Shown here: piece after piece, positions 8,149-58,933 of the stretch
Numbering within the stretch: the first letter of the stretch is position 1
How the letters are laid out: every line of letters begins with the position of its first letter
From: an uncultured virus (IMG/VR IMGVR_UViG_3300020379_000824)
Taxonomy: Duplodnaviria; Heunggongvirae; Uroviricota; Caudoviricetes
Direction: 5' to 3' (one strand)
IMG/VR virus record: IMGVR_UViG_3300020379_000824
Location: 1-64,000 of that record
DNA length: 64,000 nucleotides
The notes under the pieces: model-generated
Database searches by the model: none
Seen by the model: the letters and a program-made list of their open reading frames with translations, nothing else
Told to the model about the DNA's origin: nothing
Made by a program: the position numbers and the translations under genes

Positions 8149-8149
8149 G

Positions 8150-36941: not shown

Positions 36942-36963
36942 AATATTTGTTCCTCTACTGTAT

Positions 36964-38568: not shown

Positions 38569-38577
38569 GCTTTATAC

Positions 38578-40341: not shown

Positions 40342-40392
40342 TATTTATCTGCTTTCAGACTATTCATGTCATTAATAAACTGGCCATAAATA
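40342..40392. promoter_or_regulatory. divergent pair of late-type promoters (fibre operon leftwards, halogenase operon rightwards)
   Basis: ATAAATA on the minus strand at 40348-40342 and on the plus strand at 40386-40392 (5 nt before ATG 40398). Confidence 0.7.
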
Positions 40393-40397: not shown

Positions 40398-40976
40398 ATG
40401 ATTATAGAGAACGATATTGCAACATGGACCGGCGTTATGAGACCCGAAGAATGTGCAGCCCTTATTGAATATTATGAAAAATTGAACGACTTGCATTTAA
40501 CTGCTAGTCGTCAAACTTTAGGAGATAATTCAGCACATAATAAAGCAGATCATGCTGCGTTTCTTCTTGAACAACCTGCATTGAATATGTCAACAGACAA
40601 TCCTACTATACATACTTTTATGAATAGATTTATTGATTGCTGGAAGCAATATACTGCACATTATAGTGTGTTAGGCGAGTGCGGCGATCACAGAGTTTAC
40701 TTTATGAAACTTCAAAAAACCCTTCCAGGAGAAGGATATCATACTTGGCATTTTGAATCAGATACAAAAGAAAGGTCAGGTAGAATTGCAGCGTGGGGAA
40801 TGTATCTTAATACAGTTGACGAAGGCGGAGAAACAGAATGGTTGTACCAAAAGAAGCGTATTGCTGCTACTGAAGGAACCTTAGTTGTTTGGCCTGCAAG
40901 TTACACGCATACTCACAGAGGCAATCCGCCATTAAGTGGTGAAAAATATCTTTTAACAGGCTGGGTTGAGTTTTAA
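40398..40976 (+). CDS. 2OG-Fe(II) oxygenase, prolyl-4-hydroxylase-like
   Basis: WHFE (HxE), YLNTVDEGGET, WPASYTHTHRG, KY..TGW; start MIIEND set by the late box. Confidence 0.88.
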   Translation: MIIENDIATWTGVMRPEECAALIEYYEKLNDLHLTASRQTLGDNSAHNKADHAAFLLEQPALNMSTDNPTIHTFMNRFIDCWKQYTAHYSVLGECGDHRVYFMKLQKTLPGEGYHTWHFESDTKERSGRIAAWGMYLNTVDEGGETEWLYQKKRIAATEGTLVVWPASYTHTHRGNPPLSGEKYLLTGWVEF

Positions 40977-41593
40977 TGAAAGTAATACCTACGTTTCCAA
41001 CAGAACTATTTGAATTTAAGAACACAGAGCTTGACAACGATGCTTTGATTCCTTTGTGTGAGCAGTATGCAGATCATGTAAAACATTCTGATACAATTAG
41101 TTCTATGAGAAACTTACATGACAAAAAAGAATTGAATCCATTGTTTACATGGATTAATGATTGCATAAAGCAAGTTCACGTACAACAAAAATTTGACTGC
41201 GATGGTTTTAAAATTACAAGCAGTTGGTTTAATAGAGCATTGCCTAGAGAAGGTATGCGTTTACAATATCACAGACACTCTATGAGTTTTTTGAGTGGGG
41301 TGTATTATGTTACTGAAGGTGCTGCAACAGTATTTGAAGATCCTGTTAAGCATAGAACAGAAGCACAACTAGAAGTACTTAGACATGATTATAGTCCGCA
41401 TTGGTTTAGTGATGCTGAAGCTGGAAAACTTGTTTTATTTCCTAGTTGGTTATTTCATAGTTCAACTCCACACTTCGGAGAAAAAGATAGATACATTATA
41501 AGTTTTAATACAATGCCATATGGGGATATAAATTTTAATCTAGCAACAGACTCTGTTGCAAGTTTAGAAGTACATACCAAGGAAAAGAAATGA
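40976..41593 (+). CDS. putative 2OG-Fe(II) oxygenase (TIGR02466-like)
   Basis: WFN, HRH, LSGVYYV, FPSWLFH, RYIISFN. Confidence 0.85.
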   Translation: MKVIPTFPTELFEFKNTELDNDALIPLCEQYADHVKHSDTISSMRNLHDKKELNPLFTWINDCIKQVHVQQKFDCDGFKITSSWFNRALPREGMRLQYHRHSMSFLSGVYYVTEGAATVFEDPVKHRTEAQLEVLRHDYSPHWFSDAEAGKLVLFPSWLFHSSTPHFGEKDRYIISFNTMPYGDINFNLATDSVASLEVHTKEKK

Positions 41594-43077
41594 TTAAAAA
41601 ATTACTTGTGCTAGGTGGCGGTAATGCTGGACTAATGACTGCACTATATCATAAAAAGTCTATTGACAACTTAGACATTACACTTATTAAATCTGATAAA
41701 ATTGGAACTATTGGTGTTGGCGAAGGTAGTACTGAACATTGGAGAAGATTCGCTGATGCAGTAGGTATTACAATGACTGATCTTGCAAGAGAATGTGGTG
41801 CAACTATTAAGATTGGTATTAAGTTTGAAGATTGGCACGGTGACAAAACCAGCTACTATCACAGTTTAGCAGAACCATATATATTTGTAGATGCATACAC
41901 AGGTGATGCACATACATTGATGAGATTGATTTCAGAAGGTGTTGATTCTGAATCGTTGCATTGGGATTTACCTATGCAAGGATATGTAAGTCCGCCATTT
42001 GAAGATTACTATCAGTTCCATTTTGATAGTGAAAAATTAAATGCATTTTTAGAAAAGAGATGCATTGAAGCAGGTATTAACGTTATAACTACAGAAGTTG
42101 TAGATGTTAACATTGGTGACGGGGGCTTTGTAGACTCAGTAGTCGACATAGAAAGACGAACACACACCGCAGACTTTTTTATTGATAGTAGTGGATTCAA
42201 AAGAGTTATTGCAAGTAAACTAGGTGCTGAATGGGTAGACTGGTCATCATTTTTACCTATGAATAGTGCTATTGCTTTTCAAACACCACGCCAAGAAGAG
42301 ATACCACCTTACACACTTTCTAAAGCATTAAGTGCTGGTTGGCATTGGCGTAGTCCTGTACAAGAACGTTTTGGTAACGGTTATGTGTTTAGTGATCAAT
42401 TTATTTCTGAAGACGAAGCCATAGCAGAAATACAATCTTTATTTTCAGATACAATTAATATAGGTAGAAAAATTAATTTTGTTTCAGGTAAGGTTAATAA
42501 GTTTTGGATTAAGAACTGTGTTAGCATTGGACTTAGCAGTAACTTTGTAGAGCCTTTAGAAGCAAGTAGTATTTCAACAACTATACAACAATCAAGAGCA
42601 TTAGTTGGCGCACTAGCATCTTGGGAACGTGGCGATCAAGCAACTATAAATGAATACAATAGGATATTTGATGACTGTTTAAGTAATGTGTTAGACTTTA
42701 TTCAATTGCATTATTTTACACAAAGAGAAGATTCAAAGTTTTGGCGTTGGTGTAAAAATGAAATAGAAGTTACTCCTTTTAATAAACAAAACTTAGAAAA
42801 TTTTAAAAAACAATTTGTAAATCAAATATTATTACCCGAAGATGGTATGCACGGAAGTTTTAGAATTTACGATAATTTAAATTGGATACAGATTATGCAT
42901 GGATTGCGTATGTTTGATATTCCTAGCATTAAAAAATTATATAATGAGCGTTATAGTAAATATCGTGCAGAAGATACAGCACAATTATCTATGCTACCAC
43001 AAACTCCAGGTAACGGCTGGATGAAATGTAGAGAAGCAATAGAAACATTAAAAGGAAGGACTACCTATAAGTTATGA
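41590..43077 (+). CDS. flavin-dependent (tryptophan) halogenase-family protein 1
   Basis: GGGNAG, IGVGEGS, ATIK (catalytic Lys position), FIDSSGF, WHWRSP, FVEPLEA. Confidence 0.9.
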   Translation: MIKKLLVLGGGNAGLMTALYHKKSIDNLDITLIKSDKIGTIGVGEGSTEHWRRFADAVGITMTDLARECGATIKIGIKFEDWHGDKTSYYHSLAEPYIFVDAYTGDAHTLMRLISEGVDSESLHWDLPMQGYVSPPFEDYYQFHFDSEKLNAFLEKRCIEAGINVITTEVVDVNIGDGGFVDSVVDIERRTHTADFFIDSSGFKRVIASKLGAEWVDWSSFLPMNSAIAFQTPRQEEIPPYTLSKALSAGWHWRSPVQERFGNGYVFSDQFISEDEAIAEIQSLFSDTINIGRKINFVSGKVNKFWIKNCVSIGLSSNFVEPLEASSISTTIQQSRALVGALASWERGDQATINEYNRIFDDCLSNVLDFIQLHYFTQREDSKFWRWCKNEIEVTPFNKQNLENFKKQFVNQILLPEDGMHGSFRIYDNLNWIQIMHGLRMFDIPSIKKLYNERYSKYRAEDTAQLSMLPQTPGNGWMKCREAIETLKGRTTYKL

Positions 43078-44579
43078 TAAAATCTCTAACAATATTAGGT
43101 GGCGGAACAAGTGGATTAGTTGCAGCACTAACACTTAGAAAATCTCACCCTCTATTAAAATTAAAACTTTTAAGATCAAGTAAGATTGGTATTATTGGTG
43201 TTGGTGAAGGTAGTACAGAACACTGGCAAAGATTTATGCACCACATTGATGTTGATGTTCCAACGATTGTTAGAGAAACAGGAGCAACATTTAAAATCGG
43301 TATTAAGTTTACTAATTGGCAAGGAGATGGGAAACATTATTTTCATAGTTTAACAGAACAGTTTGCAGCACTAGATCCACTTAGTGAAGCACCTGTTCAA
43401 TGGATGAGAATGATTGCTGAAAATTGGGATCCTATTGATACTGTTTGGAAAAGAACTGCTAGTAGTTTACATGCTGAACCTTTTCATGATAGTTTTGCTC
43501 AATACCATTTTGATACAAATAAATTAAATGAATTCTTTACACGATTATGTGTAGAAAGAGGAATCGAAGTATTAGATGTTGATATTGAAGATGTAATTTT
43601 AGATGAAACAGGTAATGTTAAAGAGCTAGTTGACGAAGCTGGAACAAAACATGCTAGTGATTTCTTTATTGACTGTAGTGGATTTAATAGAGTTATATCA
43701 AGTAAACTAGGACAAAAATGGATAGACTGTGGACATCAACTTCCTATGAATAGTGCTATTGCGTTTCCTACTGCTAGAACTGAAGACATCCCATCTTATA
43801 CAGAAGCAACTGCACTAAGCAGTGGTTGGTGTTGGAGAATTCCTACACAAGATAGATATGGAAATGGTTATGTGTTTAGTGATCAATTTATTAACGAAAC
43901 ACAAGCATATGATGAAGTATCGCAGCACTATGAAAAGCATTTAGGTATTAAAGATTTAGAAATAGGTAAACGTGTAAAATTTAATGCTGGATATGTTAAC
44001 GAATTTTGGACAAAGAATTGTGTATCATTAGGGCTTAGTGCTATGTTTGTAGAACCTTTAGAAGCAACATCAATAGGTTCAACAATACAACAAGTTAATA
44101 TACTTGTAGGTAATTTATTGTACTATAGAAAAAATGATGATACTGTTGCAAAAAGATTTAATGAAAGAATGAATTTAATTGCTACTAACATTATTGACTT
44201 TATTCAGATACATTATCTTACAAAACGTAACGACTCAGAGTTTTGGCGTTGGTGTGATGAAGGTATTGTTCTAACACCATTCAACGAAGAAACACTACAG
44301 TCATTTAAAACTGCTTATCCTAATTCAGGACACTTTGTTGATCCGTCTCTTATGTTCAGTTATCTTAATTGGATACAAGTTATGCACGGCTTACATCTTT
44401 TTGATTATGATGCTTGTAAAAAGTTTTGGGAAGAAAATTTTGCAGAAAGACACAATGAAAGTTTAACAAATTTAATGAAAAAACAATTAGCAGATTGGCC
44501 AGATGAAAAAATTTACACACATCGAGAAGCATTAAACATATTAAAAGATCGTTACTTGGAGGTAAACCATGAACTCTAA
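43074..44579 (+). CDS. flavin-dependent halogenase-family protein 2
   Basis: GGGTSG, IGVGEGS, ATFK, FIDCSGF, WCWRIP, FVEPLEA. Confidence 0.92.
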   Translation: MIKSLTILGGGTSGLVAALTLRKSHPLLKLKLLRSSKIGIIGVGEGSTEHWQRFMHHIDVDVPTIVRETGATFKIGIKFTNWQGDGKHYFHSLTEQFAALDPLSEAPVQWMRMIAENWDPIDTVWKRTASSLHAEPFHDSFAQYHFDTNKLNEFFTRLCVERGIEVLDVDIEDVILDETGNVKELVDEAGTKHASDFFIDCSGFNRVISSKLGQKWIDCGHQLPMNSAIAFPTARTEDIPSYTEATALSSGWCWRIPTQDRYGNGYVFSDQFINETQAYDEVSQHYEKHLGIKDLEIGKRVKFNAGYVNEFWTKNCVSLGLSAMFVEPLEATSIGSTIQQVNILVGNLLYYRKNDDTVAKRFNERMNLIATNIIDFIQIHYLTKRNDSEFWRWCDEGIVLTPFNEETLQSFKTAYPNSGHFVDPSLMFSYLNWIQVMHGLHLFDYDACKKFWEENFAERHNESLTNLMKKQLADWPDEKIYTHREALNILKDRYLEVNHEL

Positions 44580-46113
44580 TACAGTTATATTAGGCGGTGG
44601 CGTTGCAGGCTGGTTAACTGCACTACTAATAAAAAAGACAAGACCTAGTATGAATATTACTGTTGTTGAAGATCCTAATAAGCCACCTATTATTGCTGGT
44701 GAAAGCGGTACAACTACATTTGTTGATATGTTAAAGTATCTTGATATCGATTTTGATGACTTTGTTGCTAAAGCAAATGCTACACCAAAACTAGGTGGAC
44801 GTTTTAAAGATTGGTCAGGAGTAGGTAGTGAATTTATTCATTGTTTGCAAACAGATTATGCACCTTGGTTAGATGGATGGTCAGACAATCCTGACGCTAG
44901 TGTCTTTAATATGAACTTAGGACAATTTACCGGTATAATAGCAGCTGAAAGGCAAAAGAATTTATATCAGGCTACACTGCTAGGTAATGATGTTCCTTTA
45001 GCAGATGCATTCTATGCAAACTATTTTATTAAAGAAAATAAAGTTCCGTTTGGTGCTTCTAAATCAGAACTACCAATTATTGCTATGTGGCACAATGAGA
45101 GTAGAGCAACGGCAGCATACTTGAAAGAAGTGGCTCTTAAAAGAGATATTACATTGATCGAAGGCACATACGTAGATGCCAAACAAAATGATAAAGGTGA
45201 TATAACAACTTTAATTTTAGATGATAACAGAGAAATTGAAGGAGAATGGTTTGTTGATTGTACTGGATTTGCACAGTTACTAATTAGAAAAAAATTAGGA
45301 GCAGAATACTCTGATTACTCAGATCATTTTACACACAACTCTGTTATTGCATGGTGGGACGAACCCAAGTATTCAGTAACAACAAATGCAACAGCAATGA
45401 AATATGGTTGGCGTTGGAATATTAATTTGCAACACAGATCTGGTAATGGTTACATTTATGACAACAATTATATTACAGCAGACCAAGCATTAGAGGAAGC
45501 AAGAAGTGTATGTGGTGAACATATAGAACCTATTGCTTCATTTACATACACACCCGAAGTAGCAAAAGAAAGTTGGAAAAATAATGTTTTTGCAATTGGT
45601 TTAAGCAGTGGTTTCTTAGAACCATTAGAAGCAAACGGTATTGCAGTTATTTGCGAGTCACTTTATGCTATGCAAGATTTGTGGGATCCTACTAGAAGAG
45701 ATCACACGCTGTACAGAGATAGATTTAATCATAGAGTTAATACAGTTTATGAAGATATTAAAGACTTTATTGCATTACATTTTAGAGGACGTAGAGATGA
45801 CACAGACTTCTGGAAAAGTCATATACATGACCCAGAACGTATTCCAGAATCATTAGCAATGAAACTAAAAGACTGGGATCATTATTGGCAAGGACTTGTT
45901 GGTGTAGAGCCTGTTTTTAACGGTTATTCGCCAGCAGCATGGATGCAAGTAATACAGGGATTACATATATTTTCTAACACATACTTTAGCACTGCGTTTG
46001 AAGATAAACTTGAAACAGGCAGAAACGTGCTAAATACTAACGTAAAACGCTACAAAGAGCTTGTGGCTCCATTCTGGACAATCGATGAATGGATTAAGAA
46101 TATTGATAAATAA
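44569..46113 (+). CDS. flavin-dependent halogenase-family protein 3
   Basis: GGGVAG, AGES, ATPK, FVDCTGF, WRWNIN, FLEPLEANG. Confidence 0.88.
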   Translation: MNSNTVILGGGVAGWLTALLIKKTRPSMNITVVEDPNKPPIIAGESGTTTFVDMLKYLDIDFDDFVAKANATPKLGGRFKDWSGVGSEFIHCLQTDYAPWLDGWSDNPDASVFNMNLGQFTGIIAAERQKNLYQATLLGNDVPLADAFYANYFIKENKVPFGASKSELPIIAMWHNESRATAAYLKEVALKRDITLIEGTYVDAKQNDKGDITTLILDDNREIEGEWFVDCTGFAQLLIRKKLGAEYSDYSDHFTHNSVIAWWDEPKYSVTTNATAMKYGWRWNINLQHRSGNGYIYDNNYITADQALEEARSVCGEHIEPIASFTYTPEVAKESWKNNVFAIGLSSGFLEPLEANGIAVICESLYAMQDLWDPTRRDHTLYRDRFNHRVNTVYEDIKDFIALHFRGRRDDTDFWKSHIHDPERIPESLAMKLKDWDHYWQGLVGVEPVFNGYSPAAWMQVIQGLHIFSNTYFSTAFEDKLETGRNVLNTNVKRYKELVAPFWTIDEWIKNIDK

Positions 46114-46134
46114 AGATATAGGAGTTATACAAAT

Positions 46135-46293
46135 ATGGCAACTTACAAAATGATTATTAGAAAAGAGGTAGGTAAAGCGCCTATTACTCAGGACACTTGT
46201 GAAGCATCAAGCAAAGAAGCAGCGGCAAAAATCTTTGAAGAGCGTCACGGTCCAGCAAAAATCGTTGCAGGCCCTACTAAAGTCAGCGACTAA
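46135..46293 (+). CDS. small 52-aa protein (not in ORF track)
   Basis: Hand translation MATYKMIIRKEVGKAPITQDTCEASSKEAAAKIFEERHGPAKIVAGPTKVSD*; AGGAG RBS and ATAAATA box upstream; stop abuts the convergent gene. Confidence 0.8.
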   Translation: MATYKMIIRKEVGKAPITQDTCEASSKEAAAKIFEERHGPAKIVAGPTKVSD

Positions 46294-46920
46294 TTAACGC
46301 TTAAATCCAAGCATATCTTTAACATTCTGCACTTCGTCTTTTATCTCTTGACGAACAAATTCTGCAGGAAGTCCTAATGCTGGTTTCGTATCCCATTTTA
46401 AATGTGAATATGGTCCATCGGCTTCTACGTACTGTAGAAACGCTTGTACTACTTTGTTACCCTCATACGGGTTTCTCCAGTGTTCGTGCCTACGTCCACT
46501 GTATATAACAATATCACCAACATCTAAATTAATCTCGTGTTCAACACCATCTTCATTTTTAATGTATATTGGCCAATTGTATTCTGGTTCTTTTGATATT
46601 GCAACTGATACCGATACTTCAGAGCTAGGTCTGTCAAAGTGTTTTTTAAGTTGCGATCCTTTATAATATATCCTAGCATAAGAGTACACTGGTACCAACT
46701 CATGACCCCATTCTTTTGCAACCAAAGGATTTAGTTTTACCATCAATGTTTCAAACATCAAGGGAGCGTATCTCGCAAAAGTGTTTTCTTCAAGGTCAGA
46801 TAAGTCGGCACCAGCATACAATACTTTACAAACTTCTTCCATCAGTTCGTACTCTAATGCAAGAAATTCGCAGAGTTCTGTTGATACTGCGCCTCGTATA
46901 ATTTTGTAATCTTCTATCAT
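46294..46920 (-). CDS. 2OG-Fe(II) oxygenase-like protein
   Basis: YSYARIY, HFD, GDIVIYSG...EHWR, QAFLQY. Confidence 0.8.
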   Translation of the reverse strand: MIEDYKIIRGAVSTELCEFLALEYELMEEVCKVLYAGADLSDLEENTFARYAPLMFETLMVKLNPLVAKEWGHELVPVYSYARIYYKGSQLKKHFDRPSSEVSVSVAISKEPEYNWPIYIKNEDGVEHEINLDVGDIVIYSGRRHEHWRNPYEGNKVVQAFLQYVEADGPYSHLKWDTKPALGLPAEFVRQEIKDEVQNVKDMLGFKR

Positions 46921-47474
46921 AGTAATGGCATTAACCCCATATTACCAAAAGGTCTTTCTTCATAATTTCTAATAAAAGAATTATTTGGTATTGAATGTAC
47001 ATCAAACCCTATTGTTGTTCTATAACCTTCATATGGTTCTAGTACTTTAACTTCGTGTTCAGCATGTCCTGGTCCTAAATATATTTGACCTGGCTTGTTA
47101 TCAATAGTCCAATTATCAAATATAGTTTGTGTACTTTTAGGATCAATGCTAATATATCCGTGCCAATCAAATTCATGTCCGTGTCGTGTTAAGCATTCAT
47201 CTGGTCTATGATAGTTTAACCATGCTTGTATCCACAGTGGTCGATCATCACCTATATTACTTCTTACAAATGTTCCAAGCTCTTTATATATGTTATAAAA
47301 AATAGTGCTAGGTGCAGTTAGTGCAAACACATTGTACAAATTATATGACCATGTGCTGTCATTATTATCAGAAAATATTTTCTTAAAAACACCATGTGCG
47401 TTATCTAAATGATCAAAAATCTGAGTCTTATTCTCGATTATATATTGACTTTGGTGTAAGTAGTATTCGCTCAT
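46917..47474 (-). CDS. 2OG-Fe(II) oxygenase-like protein
   Basis: AWLN, HGH, HGYISI, HEV, RTTIGFD. Confidence 0.7.
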   Translation of the reverse strand: MSEYYLHQSQYIIENKTQIFDHLDNAHGVFKKIFSDNNDSTWSYNLYNVFALTAPSTIFYNIYKELGTFVRSNIGDDRPLWIQAWLNYHRPDECLTRHGHEFDWHGYISIDPKSTQTIFDNWTIDNKPGQIYLGPGHAEHEVKVLEPYEGYRTTIGFDVHSIPNNSFIRNYEERPFGNMGLMPLL

Positions 47475-48082
47475 CCTAGTTGAACCCTATCTAAATTAAT
47501 GTTAATAACAGATCTATATGCAGAATCTTTACAATAACTGCTAGTATGATAATACTTTCCTGGGAATACAACTACTCTACCTTGTTTAGGTGTAACACGT
47601 TCTTTAATTGTAAACTTGTTCTCTTTGATACGCATAATATCATCAGTACCAGGATCATAAGTATCATTTGTTTCATTAAAAATAATAGTATCACCGTCAC
47701 AATCGTTTACATAATAAATTGCATTCCAATGTTCAAAGAAGCTGTCTATGTGCGGCATATGGTATTCTAACGTGCTTGTTTTGTTAGGTAGGGTCAAGTT
47801 AGCTCTCATGCGTATTAACCTGTTATACGGCGTCTTAGACGCACTAGTAATGCTTAAAACAAGCGGATATACAAAATTAAAGTGTTGACTTACTGCTTGT
47901 TGTTTTTCGTAAAAAAAGTGATTAAAACCTGCATGATTGCTTTCGCCTTGTAGTTCTGCATCAGGAGAAACCATGTTCTGATTAAAGACCCAACCAAATT
48001 CCCAACCAGTTAATAATGTTCTAATATGGTCTGAATAATCTTTAGGAATTACATCATCAAGTATTAAAATATCATTTGTCAT
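47471..48082 (-). CDS. 2OG-Fe(II) oxygenase
   Basis: PHID, IYYVNDCDGDT, PKQGRVVVFPG..YH, RSVININ. Confidence 0.85.
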   Translation of the reverse strand: MTNDILILDDVIPKDYSDHIRTLLTGWEFGWVFNQNMVSPDAELQGESNHAGFNHFFYEKQQAVSQHFNFVYPLVLSITSASKTPYNRLIRMRANLTLPNKTSTLEYHMPHIDSFFEHWNAIYYVNDCDGDTIIFNETNDTYDPGTDDIMRIKENKFTIKERVTPKQGRVVVFPGKYYHTSSYCKDSAYRSVININLDRVQLG

Positions 48083-48588
48083 TGTGTTGGATACCTCTGT
48101 ACTGCTGTTCCGTAAAACGTTAACATAAGTGTATTTGGTTTGTATTTTAGAATTTTATAATGTTCTTTAGGATCCCATAGTACACATCTGTTGTAAACAT
48201 TTTCTATGTTTATTGTAGGATTATGTTTATTATCATAAAAACAAATACCAGAATCTAGTTCAGTGTTTTCTGTTAAAAATACTGTACCAGCAATATTTGC
48301 TTGTGTGCTGATTTGTTTAATTTGATCAATACATCTTTCATTCATTTTTTGATATTCGCAATGTAAGAATGTAAACATTTCTTTACCAAGCACATGTTTA
48401 ATAAGTTTACCTAGTAATCTTTCAAACATATCTATATCAAGTTCATCTAGTGTTGCTGAACGTGATCCTGGAAAAACAGAATTATCTTGGTCAACAAACT
48501 CTTGTTTATTTGCATGATGCTCTACTAGCCAAGGCTGCTCAAAGAAGTTGTCAATAACTTTTACAGGTTGTGTAATATTTCTAATCAT
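48079..48588 (-). CDS. degenerate 2OG-Fe(II) oxygenase-like paralog
   Basis: VIDNFF..P, PG.R, AGTVFL, NVYNR..W...H shared with the neighbour, but no HxD. Confidence 0.6.
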   Translation of the reverse strand: MIRNITQPVKVIDNFFEQPWLVEHHANKQEFVDQDNSVFPGSRSATLDELDIDMFERLLGKLIKHVLGKEMFTFLHCEYQKMNERCIDQIKQISTQANIAGTVFLTENTELDSGICFYDNKHNPTINIENVYNRCVLWDPKEHYKILKYKPNTLMLTFYGTAVQRYPTQ

Positions 48589-49292
48589 ATTGCCCTCGCA
48601 AAAAATACTTGTGTAAGCCTTGAGTCTTTAATAGTATTACCATAAAAGTGTTCAGGACTATGCCAAAGCCTAGTATCAAAAATAATAGCTCTGTTATATA
48701 CACTTTCCATTGTTACTGTTTTTTTAAATTCTGCAACTTGTGCTTCGCGTATTTGATTAAATTCTTCTTTTTCTTTTGCTGGAACATCTAATACATCTTG
48801 CATAAACACTTCTGCATATTTGCCACCATCAAAATCCATATCTTCGTATATTACTGTTCCTGTTCCTTGAGGTGCTTCTTTGTTTAAGTATACAACTCCT
48901 GCTACATTTAATTTAGGATCATCGTCATGTACCCAGCCACGTGTGTATGATTCTGGTGTACTATGAAACGCTGTTTGTATTTCGTCAAACCCTGTATAAC
49001 CATAATCTTTAAGATATACTAGTAATTTTTTACTAAAAAAGTCTAAACTTTTTTGATCAAATTCATGAAACAGTTTAGTTCTTACACCTGGCCAACTTCC
49101 TCTATCACCTTTAAAGTATTCTAAACTAAGTGCATATTCTCTTACTTGATCAGGCTCTTCATAAAAATTATCAACTACCATAGTAGGTAGGTAAGGATAT
49201 GTAAATCTATCCTTTAGATTTTGAGAAACAATACGAGAACTAGATTGTTTGTCACGCTCTAGTAATTCATTTATATACTGCTCTTTATCCAT
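48585..49292 (-). CDS. 2OG-Fe(II) oxygenase (DUF6445-like)
   Basis: VVDNFY..P, WPGVR, WVHDD, AGVVYL, YNRAIIFD..WHS, RLTQVFF. Confidence 0.8.
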   Translation of the reverse strand: MDKEQYINELLERDKQSSSRIVSQNLKDRFTYPYLPTMVVDNFYEEPDQVREYALSLEYFKGDRGSWPGVRTKLFHEFDQKSLDFFSKKLLVYLKDYGYTGFDEIQTAFHSTPESYTRGWVHDDDPKLNVAGVVYLNKEAPQGTGTVIYEDMDFDGGKYAEVFMQDVLDVPAKEKEEFNQIREAQVAEFKKTVTMESVYNRAIIFDTRLWHSPEHFYGNTIKDSRLTQVFFARAI

Positions 49293-49866
49293 CTATTTGT
49301 CTCGCTGTAAAGTTCATAGTCATTACAATCCTTTTTGTAAACATCTTAGGACATGTACTTGCATGATAGTGTCTTCCGTTGAATACTAATACTTTACCTT
49401 GATGTGGCATACTTTTATGCATAGGCTTGTATTTTTCTGCCTCTTCTGTTTCGTGAAATACAACAGTTTCACCATCACACTCATTAACATAGTAACATGC
49501 AGTATAATGATCTACTTCAAAATCTACATGCGGTGTGTTATGTTGATATCTTACATGCGGCATCATATACTTTGTATTAAGTAAAAAGCCTAAGCGCATA
49601 CGTAACAGTTGGTCTAGTTCTAAACCTGCTTTTGCACAAGTATTCTGTAACAACGGAGTAAAAAATTCTAATCCTGGATTTTCTTTATTGTTAGGATGAT
49701 ATACTAGATTTGCAAAACTAGGTGTAGATGTATTAAGAGTATCCTTCTTTTCAAATGTTGTATCTTCCATAAAATGCCAATCAAAAGTGATATCAGTCAC
49801 TACATCAAATATTTGTTTTTGGTAATCTTTTTCAATTACATTTTCTATTTCAATCGGTTTAAACAT
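49285..49866 (-). CDS. 2OG-Fe(II) oxygenase
   Basis: PHVD, YYVNECDGET, FNG.HYHAS, RIVMTMN; paralog of 47471..48082. Confidence 0.85.
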   Translation of the reverse strand: MFKPIEIENVIEKDYQKQIFDVVTDITFDWHFMEDTTFEKKDTLNTSTPSFANLVYHPNNKENPGLEFFTPLLQNTCAKAGLELDQLLRMRLGFLLNTKYMMPHVRYQHNTPHVDFEVDHYTACYYVNECDGETVVFHETEEAEKYKPMHKSMPHQGKVLVFNGRHYHASTCPKMFTKRIVMTMNFTARQIDG

Positions 49867-50578
49867 TGTTGATCCTATAATAATTTCTATCTACTGCATT
49901 TTCCATTGGCTCTGTTGGCAGTTTCTGCCAGCATGGAATACTTAGAGATATTCGTTTGCCTTTAGGATATGCACAATGATACTGTCTTGAGGGGATATAT
50001 AATGCATCTCCCGGTTCTAATTCTACGTCAATATCTACTTCCATGTCTTTATCTTGTAACTTACCATTCATTAATCCTGTTCTATGCATGTAAGAAATTT
50101 TATTTTTATACACTTTCCATCTAGTTTTTCCTTCTGCTTGAATAATAAAATTACAAGGATAATCATCATGTATTGTAAAAGACTTAGAATCTTTTAGCCC
50201 ACAATACACATGTATTGCAGCATGTATACTAAACATATTTTCAAATACGTTTAAAAAATCCATTGTTTTTTGATTATGAAATCCGTAATCTAAACAGATT
50301 AATCCGTAACCAGCATTTACTTTATCAAATATAAAACCTTTATCTTGCACACCTCTATCATAAATCCAATTTTTTCTACTAACAGGTATTTCAATTTTAC
50401 TGCTATCTGGACTTATAAGTTCAAAGTTATAACGTTCTGTTTTATTTGTGTGCTGTTCAATATCTTGCCAAGTAACCAATTCGCTAGGATTGTCAAGCAA
50501 CTTCTTAAAGAAGTGTGGCTTATCTTCAAACGCTAAGTTTGTTTCGCTAAGTATTCTTCTGCTGAAGTCGTTCATCAT
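49859..50578 (-). CDS. JmjC/cupin_4-type oxygenase
   Basis: SFTIHDD, NFIIQAEGKTRWKV, LEPGDALYIP...H, RISLS. Confidence 0.85.
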   Translation of the reverse strand: MMNDFSRRILSETNLAFEDKPHFFKKLLDNPSELVTWQDIEQHTNKTERYNFELISPDSSKIEIPVSRKNWIYDRGVQDKGFIFDKVNAGYGLICLDYGFHNQKTMDFLNVFENMFSIHAAIHVYCGLKDSKSFTIHDDYPCNFIIQAEGKTRWKVYKNKISYMHRTGLMNGKLQDKDMEVDIDVELEPGDALYIPSRQYHCAYPKGKRISLSIPCWQKLPTEPMENAVDRNYYRINNV

Positions 50579-51173
50579 CTGTCCTTATTAATTTAACATT
50601 AAAAGATACACTTACTCTATCTTCTTCTGTTGTATTTCTTTCAACACCATGCGGTAACCAACCCGGAAACAATATTAATTTACTTGATACTGGTTCATAA
50701 GCAATTGCTGCTGCACTAATAGGTGTATAGTTTTTCATTGGTGCTGCTGATGCAATAATAAAATCTTGCATATGATTTTTGTAAACATTTAAATTACCCT
50801 GTCCTGGCTTTGCACTTACATAGTACACACCAGATATAAAACTATTATCGTGTATATGTACTGAATTAGTATTACCTTGCCTGTTAATATTAAACCAAAA
50901 GTTTTCCATTATAGGATAACAATATTCTTCGTAATAACCGTAATCTCTAATACACTGATTTACTTGTTGCATAATTGCATCGTGTAATGGTTTCATTGAA
51001 TCGTATGCATCAGGCCTAAAATCTTTTGATTGCCAGCCTCCTTGATTACTTAGTACTCTTCCATTGTCATCTTCTTTGTGCAGTTGATAACAAAGTTTTA
51101 GCATGTCTGTATTGTCTAGTTCTGTTTGCTCCCACCAAACTGGAGTAGGAAAGAACATATCCATATTCATCAT
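50547..51173 (-). CDS. putative 2OG-Fe(II) oxygenase (TIGR02466-like)
   Basis: FPTP, SNQGGWQS, WFNIN, HIH, ISGVYYV, FPGWLPH, RVSVSFN. Confidence 0.88.
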   Translation of the reverse strand: MMNMDMFFPTPVWWEQTELDNTDMLKLCYQLHKEDDNGRVLSNQGGWQSKDFRPDAYDSMKPLHDAIMQQVNQCIRDYGYYEEYCYPIMENFWFNINRQGNTNSVHIHDNSFISGVYYVSAKPGQGNLNVYKNHMQDFIIASAAPMKNYTPISAAAIAYEPVSSKLILFPGWLPHGVERNTTEEDRVSVSFNVKLIRTDDERLQQKNT

Positions 51174-51973
51174 AACCTTAACTCCAAGTCGCCCATTCTA
51201 ACTTCAGGAGGAAAATCATCTGAAAATGCAAATGTATGACTCCATCTAAAATCTACGTTAGATGAAATAACTGCTGCATGACTAATATCTGCTCTATACA
51301 TTGTCATTTTGCCTTCTACTGATGGCGCTGATCCCATATACTTAAATCCCCATTGTGCTAATTCTTCGTCTGACATATTGAACCAAGCATCTGCTCTTTG
51401 TGGTTTATCTGCAATTTGTGACCAACGCTCATACATAGGATGATCTTTATCTGTTTGAAAATCGTATAGACTATCTTTTACAGTTCCTTCGTACTTGTAA
51501 AGTTTTGTACAAGAATCTACTAAGTCGTGTCCTGTAAACCATAAATTACCTACTAAACCTTTAGGATAATCAACATGCGGAATTCGCCAGCAACTAATAG
51601 GTTTAGCTCTTTCTTTATAATATACATTACCCCATTCATGTATTTGCGGATCAAACATATTGCTTTCTACATTTTTTAAATAAAAATCACGCAATAAGAA
51701 ACATATATTTTTATATGTCCAGTCTGGTAAATGTATTGTATCAAATGGATTAGGATCTAAATTACCTTCTGCATTGTTATCTTTTACAATAGGAAAAGAC
51801 TTTACTAAGCCTTTAAAAAAATTAAAGCCGTCATCATAAAAAGGATTATCAGCAATCCAATATCCAATACCTTCACCTAAGTCAAAGTACTCGGCTTTAA
51901 AGTCCTCTAAGGACTTTACCTTTATAACACTATCGATAGTGTTTGCATCTGGATAACAAATTTTAAAGTCCAT
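51170..51973 (-). CDS. 2OG-Fe(II) oxygenase-like protein
   Basis: IPHVD, distal SH, FRWSH. Confidence 0.65.
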   Translation of the reverse strand: MDFKICYPDANTIDSVIKVKSLEDFKAEYFDLGEGIGYWIADNPFYDDGFNFFKGLVKSFPIVKDNNAEGNLDPNPFDTIHLPDWTYKNICFLLRDFYLKNVESNMFDPQIHEWGNVYYKERAKPISCWRIPHVDYPKGLVGNLWFTGHDLVDSCTKLYKYEGTVKDSLYDFQTDKDHPMYERWSQIADKPQRADAWFNMSDEELAQWGFKYMGSAPSVEGKMTMYRADISHAAVISSNVDFRWSHTFAFSDDFPPEVRMGDLELRL

Positions 51974-52581
51974 TATTTAATATTAATAGTCATTACAATT
52001 CTTTCTTGGTCTGTTTTGTTTTCTGTAACAAAGTGTTTTAACCAACTAGGAAAAATAATAACATCTCCTGTTTTACATTGCACTTCTTGCAATGTTTGTG
52101 TTTCGTTTACTATAGGAAAGTTTGTGAAGTGATATTCTAAAGGATTTCTAAAAACAATATTGCCGCTATCGGGTGGGCATTTGATATAGCAACTTGCTAC
52201 AAACGTACTATAGTTGTGACAATGCTCTTCAGTATATCCTGTCTTGTAATGTCTATTAAACCAAGAACCGATAACCGATGACTGTCTTTCGTAAAAATTT
52301 AATTCTTCTTTTATTCCTGTTAACTTAGTGCCTAGCCAATGGTGAAATTCAGCAAGTTCTTCCCAAGTGTGGGGCTGCTGTCTTTCAGGCAAAGTTACAG
52401 TAGATAGGGCGGCGCCTTTTTCTAAACTAGAATTTCTCTCAACTGAATCAAAAACTTCTTCTATTGATTGTTCTATTTCGTCATATGGAAAGTTATAACT
52501 GTATTTCCAAATTGTAGGCGGAAAGAGGTGTATGCCTCCCTCATTAGTCGGACTTACCATGTTCTTCCTCATAGGTTTCAA
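51973..52581 (-). CDS. putative 2OG-Fe(II) oxygenase (TIGR02466-like)
   Basis: WFN, HCH, YIK.P..SGNI.F, FPSWLKH, RIVMTIN. Confidence 0.85.
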   Translation of the reverse strand: MKPMRKNMVSPTNEGGIHLFPPTIWKYSYNFPYDEIEQSIEEVFDSVERNSSLEKGAALSTVTLPERQQPHTWEELAEFHHWLGTKLTGIKEELNFYERQSSVIGSWFNRHYKTGYTEEHCHNYSTFVASCYIKCPPDSGNIVFRNPLEYHFTNFPIVNETQTLQEVQCKTGDVIIFPSWLKHFVTENKTDQERIVMTINIK

Positions 52582-52816
52582 TCGCTAAATCTAAACCCAT
52601 AAGTGTGCCTTCCATCTTTAGAACATCAGTTGAAAGTTCTTGTCTCTTTGCAAAGTCAATAGAAGTAATACCATACGGATTTAATTTTAAATCAGCAAAT
52701 TCTTCTTCTAATTTGGCAAGTTCTTCGTTGCTTTTAGTCATGTCAGCTTGAAGTTGAGCTTTTACAGCTTCCAACTTAGTGACAACATTTCTATTTTTTT
52801 CTGTCATTGTAATCAT
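52544..52816 (-). CDS. small coiled-coil protein
   Basis: 90 aa, heptad-like, coupled within the oxygenase operon. Confidence 0.65.
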   Translation of the reverse strand: MITMTEKNRNVVTKLEAVKAQLQADMTKSNEELAKLEEEFADLKLNPYGITSIDFAKRQELSTDVLKMEGTLMGLDLAIETYEEEHGKSD

Positions 52817-53622
52817 CCTTTGTGTTTATACTTAGTTAAGACTGCCTTTGCCCTTTTTAATCTTGATGCTAAAGTGTCTTTATCTAGCAACGAGCAGTTT
52901 GCAGCATAATTATATGCTTTTTCTCTCTGTATGTCAACTTCAGTTGGGTGTGATGCAACTGAATAATCGTACGCACTATAATTCAGTTCACTTCTTTTAA
53001 TAGGAATGTACTGAGCTAATGGTGTTCCTGCTCTAATTAATGTTTCTCCTTCTAAAACATTCCAGAACAGTTGTAAGTTTATTACGTGTGATTGCATTGG
53101 ATCTAGTATACCATGTGCTGATGTAAACCTAGGCTCATTAGCATATGTAAGTGGTAATTGTAACAATACAATATCGTCTGAAGCTTCAACTCTCCAAGGA
53201 GTTTCTACTTTTACTGTTGTCCTTAATGTGTTTTCAACATCATCAAGCACAGGTACAGTTTGACTTTCAGTATGCATCATAATATATGATTCAGTACCTG
53301 GCATTTCTTTGTCAAACTTAATCGGTTCGCGCCATTCAAAACTAACACCGTCACCATTTGTTCTAATAATAAAGTCTGCTGGTGCTGGTACTATCCATCC
53401 TGTCATAGCAACTTTTCGTATTCCAGGACACTTAGCAACGTTAGCTTCTAGTCTTTCAACTTGCGGAGGGGGTTGATTTTTTGTAAAGTTTCTTGGTAAT
53501 TTAGATGCTTGAAAAATAGGATAAACATCTGCAACTCCAGGATACAGACTATAGAACCGCAAGTGTGGCTTTTGCTTATTAAAAAACTTTTTAATCAAGC
53601 TCGTAATCATCTTTCCCGCCAT
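52813..53622 (-). CDS. hypothetical protein of the oxygenase island (KCPG motif, beta-rich)
   Basis: KCPGI...GWIVP, TPW, GILD, IRAGTPLAQYIP. Confidence 0.65.
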   Translation of the reverse strand: MAGKMITSLIKKFFNKQKPHLRFYSLYPGVADVYPIFQASKLPRNFTKNQPPPQVERLEANVAKCPGIRKVAMTGWIVPAPADFIIRTNGDGVSFEWREPIKFDKEMPGTESYIMMHTESQTVPVLDDVENTLRTTVKVETPWRVEASDDIVLLQLPLTYANEPRFTSAHGILDPMQSHVINLQLFWNVLEGETLIRAGTPLAQYIPIKRSELNYSAYDYSVASHPTEVDIQREKAYNYAANCSLLDKDTLASRLKRAKAVLTKYKHKG

Positions 53623-55213
53623 ATATGTTTTCTTTTAAGTACTCATAATGACTAGGTAGATTCTCTAGATGATCTAATACAAAATTTTTATACTGTTGAT
53701 ACATGCGATCAACTGCACCTATTTCCTCTTGTATATCTACTTCGAATCTACGACTAGATCCTCGTAAAACTAACTCAGGTGTAGCAGTCGCTCTAATGCC
53801 CATTCCCGCTGTAATAAAACAATTTCCTGTATATGTTTCATCGTACGCATGTCCGCCTACAATGTTACCAATCATAGCAACATACTGTGAATGTTTTTGC
53901 ATTTCATCTGAATGCATAAGCGGATCATATTCATTTATTTCAGTACACCATCTCCAGTATGGAGTGTCTTCTCTCATAGAGAATGCATAGTGTTGTGATA
54001 CAAAGTCTCTAAACTTTTTAACATCATATTCACAAGAAAAGTTAAAGCCTTCTCGTTCAGTTCTAGTTACATGGCCGTCTCTTGTGTTTAATATATCAAC
54101 TAGTTTAATAATATTTTCGTGTGTAGTTAACAGTCCTGTTGATTCTAATGGCTCAACAAATCCGTAACTAAGTCCTACACCTACTACATTACCTTTCCAT
54201 GCTCTATGTCTATAACCATGTTTAATTTTAACTTCAAACATTTCTGCTGCTTCAGCAATTTCTGGTGTATGTGCTTCTGCAAGATGTTTTCTAAACTCTA
54301 CTTGAGCTTTTTCTGGTGTTGTAAACCTTGATGAGTAAACATAGCCTGTACCAATTCTATTCCATAAAGGAATGTTCCATACCCAACCATTACCAAGTGC
54401 ATGGCAATCAGTTACGTTGTGCATTTGTTTTTCTCTATCAGTATAAGGTAATCTACATGCCCATGCTCTATCATTTGCTAAGTGTTTTTCAAAGTTCATA
54501 AAGTGTGAACCCATCCAACCTTCTAGCATAATAGATGCAAAACCTGTACAATCAATATACAAGTCACTGTTTAACTTAGTTCCGTCTGCACATAATACTT
54601 GTGTAACGTAACTGTTTGTATTGTCTTTCATATGGGAATGTACTTCGCCATACATATGTTTTACACCGTTAGGAATAGCAATTTTATCTTTTAAGTATTG
54701 ACCAAATGCTGCTGCATCTAAATGATATGCAGTATCCCAATCAAAATTAAAGTTTCTTAAAACACCATCTTCGTTTTTAGTTTGCTTGTTTTGTTCAGCA
54801 AGTAATGTATTACCTGTACAAAAGAATCTTGCAAATTCTTCTGGAGTATATTGTTCAGGTTTTAGTGCTGCTAACTGTCTCCAGTTTTCCATGCCACCTG
54901 GCTTATCAGTATAATCGAATCCATCACTAAACGGATATTGAAATACTTCGCCTTTATTTTCTCTAAAGTTTGTAAATTGAATTGAGTTTTTATATGTTGC
55001 GTTACATGCTGGCATCCAATCTTCATCTTTAAGATCAAGCATTTGAAGATATCTATTAATATGTCCTAATGTACTTTCACCTACGCCAACTGTGCCAATT
55101 GTTTTAGATTCAATTAATGTAATATCTAAGTGTGGGCAACATTTAGAAAGTGCTGCTGCTGTCATCCAACCGGAAGAGCCGCCTCCAACAATTGTTACTG
55201 TTTTAATTTTCAT
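53591..55213 (-). CDS. flavin-dependent halogenase-family protein 4
   Basis: GGGSSG, VGVGEST, ATYK, YIDCTGF, WVWNIP, FVEPLESTG (all canonical). Confidence 0.93.
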   Translation of the reverse strand: MKIKTVTIVGGGSSGWMTAAALSKCCPHLDITLIESKTIGTVGVGESTLGHINRYLQMLDLKDEDWMPACNATYKNSIQFTNFRENKGEVFQYPFSDGFDYTDKPGGMENWRQLAALKPEQYTPEEFARFFCTGNTLLAEQNKQTKNEDGVLRNFNFDWDTAYHLDAAAFGQYLKDKIAIPNGVKHMYGEVHSHMKDNTNSYVTQVLCADGTKLNSDLYIDCTGFASIMLEGWMGSHFMNFEKHLANDRAWACRLPYTDREKQMHNVTDCHALGNGWVWNIPLWNRIGTGYVYSSRFTTPEKAQVEFRKHLAEAHTPEIAEAAEMFEVKIKHGYRHRAWKGNVVGVGLSYGFVEPLESTGLLTTHENIIKLVDILNTRDGHVTRTEREGFNFSCEYDVKKFRDFVSQHYAFSMREDTPYWRWCTEINEYDPLMHSDEMQKHSQYVAMIGNIVGGHAYDETYTGNCFITAGMGIRATATPELVLRGSSRRFEVDIQEEIGAVDRMYQQYKNFVLDHLENLPSHYEYLKENIYGGKDDYELD

Positions 55214-55280
55214 ATCTTTTCCTTTGGTGTATTTTATAATATACTACTATTATTTATCCTATGGTAGAGAGGGCAGAAAT

Positions 55281-55305
55281 AAAAAAAGGCTCCGAAGAGC
55301 CTTTT
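55281..55305 (-). terminator. rho-independent terminator with UUCG tetraloop
   Basis: AAAAGGCTC-TTCG-GAGCCTTTT-TTT. Confidence 0.9.
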
Positions 55306-58474: not shown

Positions 58475-58933
58475 TTAAATTGATGCTACTAACCAACCAC
58501 TTGCTTCGTCAGTGTACTCTAGTGTAAATGATGCACCATTAGTACTTACAGTCATATTGTCGCTTGTACGCATAATTTTTTTACCGTTGGCTCCAACTGT
58601 TAAGTTATTACTACCAAATGTTCCTGAGTAATCTTGAAACTTAACTGTATCACCTTCGACTGGAGAACCCGGTAATGTTACCGTAACTGGTCCGCCTGCA
58701 CTGTTAACAATATAGAATGTATTTGACATAGCTGCTGTTGCAGATGTAATTACTACTCTCGGTAATTCTCCAACTACGTGCCATTGTACCGCGTTATGGT
58801 TATAAATTTCTAAAATATTTTTAGAAGTATTATAATATAAAGCACCAGAGTTAGCACTAGGAGGGCGTTGAGCAGTAGTGCCAGATGCAATAACTGGCTG
58901 ATCGTTAAGTCCTTGTCCTACTATTCTTCCCAT
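58475..58933 (-). CDS. tail-fibre-associated structural protein
   Basis: GTTAQRP..G.LYYNT and VTLPGSPVEGDTVKFQD (gp34-type repeat) modules. Confidence 0.65.
   Translation of the reverse strand: MGRIVGQGLNDQPVIASGTTAQRPPSANSGALYYNTSKNILEIYNHNAVQWHVVGELPRVVITSATAAMSNTFYIVNSAGGPVTVTLPGSPVEGDTVKFQDYSGTFGSNNLTVGANGKKIMRTSDNMTVSTNGASFTLEYTDEASGWLVASI

Follow-up and report, generated by a model that had tools for sequence, protein, structure and literature searches.

The DNA analysed here, a stretch of 64,000 nucleotides from an uncultured virus (IMG/VR record IMGVR_UViG_3300020379_000824; hereafter, the window), carries at positions 40398-55213 an island of oxidative tailoring genes: four flavin-dependent halogenases, twelve oxygenases of the Fe/2-oxoglutarate (Fe/2OG) or JmjC type, a protein predicted to adopt a dUTPase fold and two small open reading frames (ORFs). 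We tentatively propose that this island is a late-transcribed protein-tailoring module, the likeliest substrates being the phage's own fibre-side or virion proteins. The proposal is favoured by: (i), conserved late-type promoter boxes and near-constant co-inheritance with a family of Gly/His/Tyr-rich fibre-type proteins and with a Trp-rich protein resembling gp40 of phage Syn9 (gp40-like); (ii), scaffold-building enzymes not being found by domain searches of the window, and the protein-hydroxylase types among the oxygenases; (iii), the architecture of VirX1, the halogenase of Syn10, described as a trimer whose active site is large and accessible (PMC8407142); and (iv), an instance outside the Kyanoviridae, contig L197, in which a tail-collar protein and a relative of the dUTPase-fold protein have a P4H-like (prolyl 4-hydroxylase-like) oxygenase nearby. 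The window is a fragment from a T4-like cyanophage (G+C about 0.36); the whole record measures 74,443 bases, with a CheckV completeness of about 20%, and no near-identical DNA was found among 50,697 cultured phage records.

The island consists of two convergent, tightly packed operons that abut at 46293/46294, and its ORFs and coordinates agree with those of an earlier note on this DNA (the original prediction). The plus-strand operon runs from a P4H-like oxygenase through a 2OG-FeII_Oxy_5 oxygenase and three Trp-halogenase-family proteins (Hal1-Hal3; 495, 501 and 514 aa) to a 52-aa ORF; its genes overlap by 1, 4, 4 and 11 nt, with a 21-nt gap ahead of the last ORF. The minus-strand operon holds a 540-aa halogenase (Hal4), a 269-aa protein, a 90-aa protein and ten oxygenase-type proteins, and consecutive genes overlap by 1-38 nt at 12 of its 12 junctions. 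Purifying selection acts throughout: against a relative at 66-88% identity, the ratio of non-synonymous to synonymous substitution (dN/dS) is 0.09-0.20 in 21/21 genes, the 52-aa ORF included.

All four predicted Trp-halogenase-family proteins match the Pfam profile over their full length (PF04820, Trp_halogenase; 291-353 bits, cut-off 21), and they are the only such matches in the 74-kb record. Hal1 and Hal2 are 45% identical, and Hal3 shares about 25% identity with each of the others; the nearest cultured-phage relative of Hal1 is 39% identical, and no cultured-phage match to Hal3 exceeds 31%. Hal4 is 54% identical to Syn9 gp42, its best PDB chain after VirX1 itself (6qgm) lies at E 8.7e-73 (Table 1), and it stands, as its counterparts do in Syn9 and Syn10, between a gp40-like gene upstream and a gp43-like gene downstream. 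Hal1-Hal3, in contrast, are as distant from VirX1 (E 8e-43) as from bacterial Trp halogenases (E 1e-57 to 1e-61). Judged by sequence, Hal4 is thus the VirX1 orthologue and Hal1-Hal3 are two further deep halogenase lineages beside the VirX1 type. The GxGxxG motif, the catalytic Lys (K75, Hal4 numbering), WxW and E354-P-L-E357 are kept in all four; in an alignment of 38 rows that includes them, G10, G11, G12, G15, K75 and EPLE are invariant, as is the WxW of the WxWxIP motif, the last two residues of which read IP in Hal2 and Hal4, SP in Hal1 and IN in Hal3. A phage-encoded flavin reductase (PF01613) was not found in the 74-kb record or in a 265-kb relative. Among cultured phages, relatives of Hal1-Hal3 lie about 6.5 kb away from a fibre gene (S-H38), beside fibre-assembly genes (P-SSM2) and between the terminase subunits, inside the late structural module, of the Pelagibacter phage HTVC008M; a 2OG oxygenase adjoins the halogenase in all three contexts, and the Pelagibacter phage pair suggests a function not tied to cyanobacterial metabolism.

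About twelve Fe/2OG oxygenases had been predicted and twelve are counted. Seven pass a Pfam cut-off (one 2OG-FeII_Oxy_3, three 2OG-FeII_Oxy_5, one JmjC_2 and two DUF6445); the remaining five are assigned from sub-threshold Pfam or PHROG matches together with invariant HxD...H...R or HxH...H...R residues. Some of the PHROG families matched by the oxygenases are mislabelled, as 'ferrochelatase' (phrog_2954), 'DNA endonuclease V' or 'minor coat protein' (phrog_1644). The metal triad is invariant in 11 of the 12, and a downstream 2OG-binding Arg in ten of those (none is listed for the JmjC protein); four of the triad-bearing proteins have HxH in place of HxD/E. The twelfth, the 169-aa DUF6445 paralogue, shows no clear metal triad in the alignment of its relatives, and its activity is uncertain. 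Three proteins had been called TIGR02466-like: one reaches the NCBIfam cut-off (110.9 bits) and two stay below its 62.5 bits (59.1 and 61.2). A 2OG-type halogenase among the oxygenases was considered and rejected, the HxA/G form being carried by 0/12. PDB matches of the 208-aa TIGR02466 protein (50547-51173) are 3bvc and 2rg4, both uncharacterised, while the solved chains nearest to the JmjC member are NO66 and an L16 arginine hydroxylase. A 2OG oxygenase has been reported in the virion proteome of S-SCSM2R, where, according to its authors, it may simply be abundant (PMC12801897).

The case for late transcription starts from the ATAAATA boxes which, as predicted, head both operons (40386-40392, plus strand; 55251-55257, minus strand). 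ATAAATA is depleted in the window (12 copies, 27.6 expected), and 11 of the 12 copies lie at most 80 nt upstream of a start on the same strand (binomial P 1.5e-14). Genes with a box in front include those for a gp13-like neck protein, a virion structural protein and the two left-flank fibre proteins, as well as the gp40-like gene, the two operon heads and the 52-aa ORF. The plus-operon box is kept in five relatives (L011, L012, L021, L023 and L029) despite diverged surroundings, and the Hal4 box in 7/9 uncultured relatives shown, the other two having CTAAATA. In Syn9 and S-CREM1 a box precedes gp40 and none precedes the halogenase, so that gp40 and the cassette look like one unit there; in this window a hairpin (55305-55284) and a separate box divide the two. 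The complete 8-mer of the T4 late promoter, which we take to be TATAAATA, occurs a single time in the window. Five boxes end exactly 5 nt before an ATG (13968-13974, 19721-19727, 23060-23066 and 31757-31763, minus strand; 40386-40392, plus strand); if these act as T4 late -10 elements, the mRNAs would be leaderless or nearly so, the alternative being that ATAAATA has a second role at these starts. Metatranscriptome contigs from three studies (runs X1, X2, X4 and X5) lie over the island and its flanks; they are no evidence of expression class, since they show neither strand, start nor timing and since DNA is possible in such libraries.

Conservation of the locus points to the fibre side. The double-operon island occurs with the same gene order in 33 IMG/VR loci, in groups of about 100, 87, 79 and 76% identity, and a more distant clade at 55%, represented by the 265-kb contig (CheckV completeness 72%), keeps Hal1-Hal3 and the complete minus operon. 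The original prediction had placed fibre genes on both sides of the island, and PHROG matches on both sides are indeed fibre-type. The two flanks behave differently in relatives. The left one (35313-40311) is kept in 72-100% relatives and is absent from the flank of the 55% clade, where the neck gene gp15, a NUDIX gene and another gp43-like copy take its place; the left fibre genes are thus a feature of closer relatives only. The right flank of that clade is as here, with a giant fibre, two small fibre-type genes, three Gly-rich genes, the gp40-like gene and the halogenase, and the fibre module has the same gene order in the 265-kb relative. A constant right flank beside a variable left one suggests that the island is anchored on its right, fibre, side.

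Linkage to the Gly/His-rich genes, which the original prediction had proposed to look at in relatives, is close to constant. Starting from the Gly-rich proteins, we collected 72 viral loci, 62 of which extend at least 1300 nt beyond the last Gly-rich gene; a gp40-like gene and a halogenase follow in 62/62, at Gly-protein identities of 59-100%. Starting from VirX1-like halogenases (80 loci, 70 with at least 2 kb upstream and 73 with room downstream), both gp40-like and Gly-rich genes are upstream in 66/70. In cultured phages the gp40-like gene directly precedes the halogenase in 20/20 records, and six of the seven contexts of Hal4 relatives (Syn9, S-CREM1, S-RIM44, P-TIM40, S-WAM1 and P-RSM6) present fibre genes, Gly-rich genes, the gp40-like gene, one or two halogenases and an oxygenase array on one strand. 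Because both viral samples are biased to relatives sharing the search peptides, and because gene order in these phages is conservative, the counts show co-inheritance and not independent re-association. A tblastn search with the Gly-rich proteins returned 11 cultured records, all cassette-bearing; it missed P-TIM40 and P-RSM6, being made insensitive by the low-complexity filter, and is no fair test of exclusivity. The 106-aa fibre-type gene was rejected as a linkage marker, its distribution (P-SSM2, S-CAM1, S-CAM3) differing from that of the cassette.

The co-inherited proteins themselves are candidate substrates. The three Gly-rich paralogues share a C-terminal domain, and ten His and four Tyr are invariant across six sequences. 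The gp40-like protein has five invariant tryptophans (W34, W45, W58, W102 and W158); it has no structural match in the PDB and, in BFVD, a weak likeness to tail-fibre assembly proteins (E 4e-3 to 6e-2).

We propose the following scheme. The core of the module would be the Syn9-type cassette, with a VirX1-type halogenase, its dUTPase-fold partner, the gp44-like protein and an array of divergent Fe/2OG or JmjC hydroxylases, to which this lineage would have added the second convergent operon, with two oxygenases and three halogenases from two further deep lineages. The enzymes would be produced together with the virion proteins. The halogenases, supplied with FADH2, O2 and halide by the host, would put halogen (iodide or bromide, if VirX1 is a guide) on exposed aromatic side chains and the oxygenases would hydroxylate different residues, the targets being the three Gly/His/Tyr-rich short fibre proteins and/or the Trp-rich gp40-like protein. 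A bolder version, which we regard as possible though doubtful, is that four halogenases and up to twelve hydroxylases decorate the Gly/His/Tyr-rich, trimeric fibre tips or the gp40-like protein late in infection, so that adhesion and host range would be tuned chemically rather than by mutation; the VirX1 trimer and its open site would fit three-fold fibres, the dUTPase-fold protein, presumably trimeric, would be a docking adaptor, and it would be the first case of a virus structural protein being halogenated by an enzyme. The idea of virion decoration by phage halogenases was not found in our searches of full-text papers, subscription papers being outside the search.

A number of observations weigh against tailoring of fibre-side proteins. 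The residue modified, the contact between enzyme and substrate and the actual timing are all points that we infer. Adjacency could be inherited synteny in a group of strongly conserved gene order, and the region after the fibre module is described as a plastic zone (PMC2984593). The left fibre flank of the plus operon is the one replaced in the 55% clade (by gp15, NUDIX and the second gp43-like gene), and the relatives of Hal1-Hal3 in S-H38, P-SSM2 and HTVC008M have no adjoining Gly-rich or gp40-like genes. In 4/70 VirX1-like loci, all of one lineage at about 58% identity, a lone halogenase sits among replication genes (at one annotated locus a DNA polymerase fragment, MazG, a clamp loader and PhoH), and the cultured S-B64 has a lone halogenase beside the gp46/47 nuclease genes; all of these lack Gly-rich, gp40-like and gp43-like genes. 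The constant partner of the halogenase, the gp43-like protein, has a nucleotide-enzyme fold, and its distant relatives adjoin nucleotide-metabolism genes. An internal sigma-70-type promoter may allow early expression of the oxygenase array in this phage. Finally, VirX1 halogenates many small aromatic compounds in vitro, as reported in PMC8407142. The virion-decoration reading of the original prediction therefore stands in part: conserved late-type boxes, fibre linkage and the scaffold enzymes not found speak for it, and the lone halogenases, the left flank and the sigma-70 site against it.

The activity of VirX1 on small aromatics, together with lone halogenases that work in replication modules without a fibre partner, would equally suit the tailoring of a secondary metabolite, in which one enzyme after another would act on a free amino acid, a small peptide or a host metabolite and the halogenated, hydroxylated product would leave the infected cell at lysis. 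Secondary-metabolite synthesis is what Iyer et al. proposed for the Syn9 cluster, in a paper that also describes bacterial neighbourhoods of dioxygenase, halogenase, SapC and TonB-receptor genes, some with genes for non-ribosomal peptide synthetases (NRPS; PMC2938197), and the conserved 52-aa and 90-aa ORFs inside the island are compatible with it. We nevertheless find such a pathway rather unlikely. In agreement with the original prediction, Pfam and profile searches of the window found no NRPS, polyketide synthase (PKS) or ligase domain; an AMP-binding domain was found neither in the 74-kb record (about 20% of the genome by CheckV) nor in the 265-kb relative, and the latter yielded no condensation domain either. 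The family matches of the island include no transporter gene, late-type promoters would confine synthesis to the short time before lysis, across genera the cassette stays tied to a single fibre family, and a related halogenase-oxygenase pair exists in the Pelagibacter phage.

The gp43-like partner raises a different question. It has 187 homologues, all unnamed and without a Pfam family. In its AlphaFold2 (AF2) model, built from a 46-sequence alignment, the fold is of the dUTPase/dCTP-deaminase type, as Iyer et al. had named it: all the matches listed by Foldseek are dUTPases, and in a VIA search of 48,161 chains the 22 best matches all belong to dUTPases, dCTP deaminases or viral proteins of dUTPase fold (best Z 9.9). 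By sequence, it matched nothing in Pfam (E up to 10) or in a PDB profile search (E up to 10), dUTPase families included. Cys65 is invariant in the 46 sequences and in four distant ones, and His117, Gln121 and Lys138 are likewise kept in distant relatives; Asp83 and Asp174, which we take to be the counterparts of the dUTPase motif aspartates, are not. Two of the distant relatives score just below the DUF6065 cut-off. One, in Halorubrum virus HRTV-2, adjoins thymidylate synthase and lies 2.3 kb from the fibre module; another, in S-RIM4, adjoins nrdA/nrdB. A prediction of the complex between Hal4 and the gp43-like protein scored 0.00 in two runs without controls and speaks neither way. In the 55% clade represented by the 265-kb relative, the Hal1-Hal3 operon is closely preceded by a NUDIX gene and a further gp43-like copy that shares 37% identity with the first (L035:5057-6336, plus strand), so that a dUTPase-fold protein accompanies halogenases at two places in one genome. 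On L197 (189-5910), a 6-kb contig binned with a Bacteroidota metagenome-assembled genome, a tail-collar gene is directly followed by a gp43-like gene (31% identical); two unknown genes and a convergent set of carbamoyltransferase, unknown gene and P4H-like oxygenase complete the contig, and no halogenase was found on its 6 kb.

Such a fold could mean that this partner binds a pyrimidine nucleotide for the halogenase and the oxygenases to act on, yielding a modified DNA base or a nucleoside product. The predicted fold itself, the constancy of the partner (beside the halogenase in 14/16 cultured phage records, downstream of it in 70/73 viral loci), the neighbours in HRTV-2 and S-RIM4, the NUDIX gene ahead of the second copy and the lone halogenases of replication modules all agree with nucleotide modification. 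We still think it quite improbable, given that the protein lacks any sequence match to dUTPase families, that Asp83 and Asp174 are lost in distant relatives, that late-type promoters and fibre linkage fit poorly, that the one gp43-like gene outside cyanophages on L197 follows a tail-collar fibre gene and that the JmjC and P4H-like members belong to protein-modifying types.

A perfect TTGACA-N17-TATAAT site lies within the minus operon, and early expression of the oxygenase array is thus conceivable. The window has four such sites against 0.13 expected, all on the minus strand; one precedes the gene for the gp32 single-stranded DNA-binding protein, with an ATAAATA box within its spacer, and another, within a fibre gene, has no evident gene downstream of it. 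Early expression would suit an effect on host physiology, the oxygenases hydroxylating host proteins (ribosomal proteins, translation factors) or draining 2-oxoglutarate to steer NtcA-dependent expression; the nearest solved relatives of the JmjC member hydroxylate ribosomal proteins, and modulation of 2-oxoglutarate and NtcA is the role that Sullivan et al. (2010) proposed for the 2OG oxygenases of cyanophages (PMC3037559). This, too, seems distinctly unlikely to us: relatives at 85% and 72% do not retain the -35 hexamer, so the site is not conserved beyond close relatives; a 2OG sink would not require twelve divergent families whose order is kept and which evolve under purifying selection; the halogenases would be left unexplained; and the Pelagibacter phage instance falls outside NtcA biology.

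Table 1. Features of the island, its flanks and its control elements (window positions)
Feature	Position	Strand	Evidence or remark
Perfect sigma-70-type sites	2795-2823, 16950-16978, 36330-36358, 52909-52937	-	TTGACA-N17-TATAAT
Left-flank fibre-type protein	35313-36941	-	PHROG (flank: phrog_677, phrog_9729)
S8 subtilase	36964-38568	-	Peptidase_S8 102.7 bits; phrog_9158
Fibre-type protein, 577 aa	38578-40311	-	PHROG (flank: phrog_677, phrog_9729)
ATAAATA box	40342-40348	-	30 nt before 577-aa fibre gene start; back to back with plus-operon box
ATAAATA late-type box	40386-40392	+	5 nt ahead of first plus-operon ATG
P4H-like 2OG oxygenase, 192 aa	40398-40976	+	2OG-FeII_Oxy_3 40.5 bits; H118, E120, H171, R174 invariant
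2OG-FeII_Oxy_5/TIGR02466-like oxygenase, 205 aa	40976-41593	+	PF13759 59.1 bits; TIGR02466 59.1, cut-off 62.5
Hal1, flavin-dependent halogenase, 495 aa	41590-43077	+	Trp_halogenase 350 bits
Hal2, flavin-dependent halogenase, 501 aa	43074-44579	+	Trp_halogenase 327 bits
Hal3, flavin-dependent halogenase, 514 aa	44569-46113	+	Trp_halogenase 291 bits; deep branch
ATAAATA box	46106-46112	+	22 nt before 52-aa ORF; overlaps Hal3 stop codon
Conserved 52-aa ORF	46135-46293	+	present in 83-100% relatives; dN/dS 0.18
Syn9 gp54-like 2OG oxygenase, 208 aa	46294-46920	-	last minus-operon gene; phrog_2954; H94, D96, H147, R149 invariant
HxH...H...R oxygenase, 185 aa	46917-47474	-	PF13759 16.7 bits (sub-threshold); H98, H100, H140, R152 invariant
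Oxygenase, 203 aa	47471-48082	-	PF13759 23.5 bits (sub-threshold); H111, D113, H179, R190 invariant
Short DUF6445 paralogue, 169 aa	48079-48588	-	DUF6445 28.7 bits, N-terminal part only; dN/dS 0.18
DUF6445 oxygenase, 235 aa, Syn9 gp52-like	48585-49292	-	DUF6445 55.7 bits; H122, D124, H211, R225 invariant
Oxygenase, 193 aa	49285-49866	-	phrog_274, phrog_81; H113, D115, H168, R179 invariant
JmjC protein (MINA/NO66/YcfD-type), 239 aa, Syn9 gp49-like	49859-50578	-	JmjC_2 64.8 bits; H137, D139, H201 invariant
TIGR02466/2OG-FeII_Oxy_5 oxygenase, 208 aa	50547-51173	-	PF13759 84.7 bits; TIGR02466 110.9 bits, above cut-off
Oxygenase, 267 aa	51170-51973	-	phrog_1644; H133, D135, H232, R243 invariant
2OG-FeII_Oxy_5 oxygenase, 202 aa	51973-52581	-	PF13759 65.6 bits; TIGR02466 61.2 bits, below cut-off
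Syn9 gp44-like protein, 90 aa	52544-52816	-	colinear with Syn9 gp44
gp43-like protein, predicted dUTPase fold, 269 aa	52813-53622	-	AF2 pLDDT 88.7; fold search
Perfect TTGACA-N17-TATAAT	52909-52937	-	inside gp43-like gene; ends 92 nt before gp44-like ATG
Hal4, putative VirX1 orthologue, 540 aa	53591-55213	-	first minus-operon gene; PDB 6qgm, full length, E 3.9e-195
ATAAATA late-type box	55251-55257	-	37 nt before Hal4 ATG
Terminator-like hairpin and T run	55284-55305	-	between gp40-like gene and Hal4 promoter
gp40-like Trp-rich protein, 171 aa	55330-55845	-	directly upstream of halogenase
Three paralogous Gly/His/Tyr-rich short fibre-type proteins, 284, 285, 283 aa	55877-58457	-	Gly_rich_2 29-38 bits; 284-aa paralogue matches phrog_863
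Fibre module: 152-aa and 106-aa fibre-type proteins, 1561-aa tail fibre	58475-63977	-	PHROG tail-fibre families

Of the two small island proteins, the 90-aa gp44-like one has no family match in Pfam. The 52-aa ORF has a 71-aa counterpart in the same position in the 55% clade, with which it shares 42% identity; the ESM Atlas gives no match at 0.9 or above, and HMMER finds 11 relatives, six of which are repeats within proteins of 297-977 aa, two of these proteins having sub-threshold PepSY matches. Elsewhere in the window, the gene for a subtilisin-type S8 protease sits between two fibre-type genes of the left flank and is kept in 66-100% relatives. A sugar-nucleotide/glycan cluster (32-13962, minus strand) with an ATAAATA box at its head encodes an NAD epimerase/dehydratase, a cupin, an FkbM methyltransferase, a GT8-like transferase and a fusion of cytidylyltransferase and mannose-6-P isomerase, and could be a second tailoring system in the same phage. 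Inside the structural block, a gene with a TnsA-like endonuclease N-terminal domain (23578-24018, minus strand; 84.2 bits) may encode a homing-type nuclease. Contigs of up to about 341 kb occur among the clusters of near-identical proteins (98-100%), and the clade may have genomes considerably larger than the roughly 250 kb reached by the largest phage records that these searches returned.

VirX1 is a much-studied iodinating enzyme, and the locus bears on what viral halogenases naturally act upon, as well as on why marine T4-like phages carry so many 2OG oxygenases. It is the richest version seen here, having four halogenases and twelve oxygenases, and its near-constant inheritance with a Gly/His-rich fibre family and a Trp-rich partner names concrete candidate substrates. 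Should the fibre-side reading be correct, halogen chemistry on phage adhesins would add a new level at which host range is controlled in the ocean; otherwise, a halogenated metabolite or nucleotide made by the phage would be the product to expect.

This kind of cassette is not unprecedented: it has been known since 2010, and its halogenase since 2019 (VirX1). In the Syn9 cluster, Iyer et al. describe ten tandem dioxygenases, including a MINA/NO66-type JmjC protein, two Trp halogenases and a dUTPase-fold protein with a conserved cysteine (PMC2938197); the same divergent dioxygenase array with one JmjC member, a Trp-halogenase head and a predicted dUTPase-fold protein with a conserved Cys are found here. 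The minus operon is colinear with Syn9 gp40-gp54 in the order gp40-like, VirX1-type halogenase, gp43-like, gp44-like, 2OG array with one JmjC and gp54-like last, at 31-54% amino-acid identity (31-59% over Syn9 gp40-gp54 and S-CREM1 genes 68-80), and in Syn9, too, the cassette is downstream of fibre and Gly-rich genes. The larger half of the island, which the original prediction took to be inserted among fibre genes, is therefore a known Syn9-type cassette and not a new insertion. There are nevertheless differences from Syn9: (i), the minus operon is headed by one halogenase and the Syn9 cassette by two; (ii), in the window the halogenase is set apart from the gp40-like gene by a terminator and an ATAAATA box of its own; (iii), a second convergent operon is present, which occurs in none of the cultured phage records examined.

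Beyond Syn9, the likenesses are partial. Hal4 has the Lys, WxWxIP and EPLE of VirX1 (PDB 6qgm) and its gene context, whereas Hal1-Hal3 are no closer to VirX1 than to bacterial Trp halogenases. Bacterial operons pair 2OG hydroxylases with collagen-like or tail-collar proteins, and Iyer et al. proposed these to be enzyme-substrate pairs (PMC2938197); here as there, and similarly on L197, hydroxylases are co-encoded with Gly-rich or fibre-type proteins, although the bacterial operons have sulfotransferases and lack flavin halogenases. With NO66/MINA53/YcfD and the prolyl 4-hydroxylases, the JmjC_2 and 2OG-FeII_Oxy_3 members have fold family and metal triad in common, yet identity is low (E 1e-7 to 6e-4), the phage JmjC protein has 239 aa against chains of 373-489 aa, and the phage proteins lack the extra ribosomal-substrate-binding domains. 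What is new, and absent from the cultured records examined, is an arrangement, conserved across an uncultured clade, that distributes four halogenases over two convergent operons; within it the new part is the plus operon, with its two oxygenases, three deep-branching halogenases and conserved 52-aa ORF.

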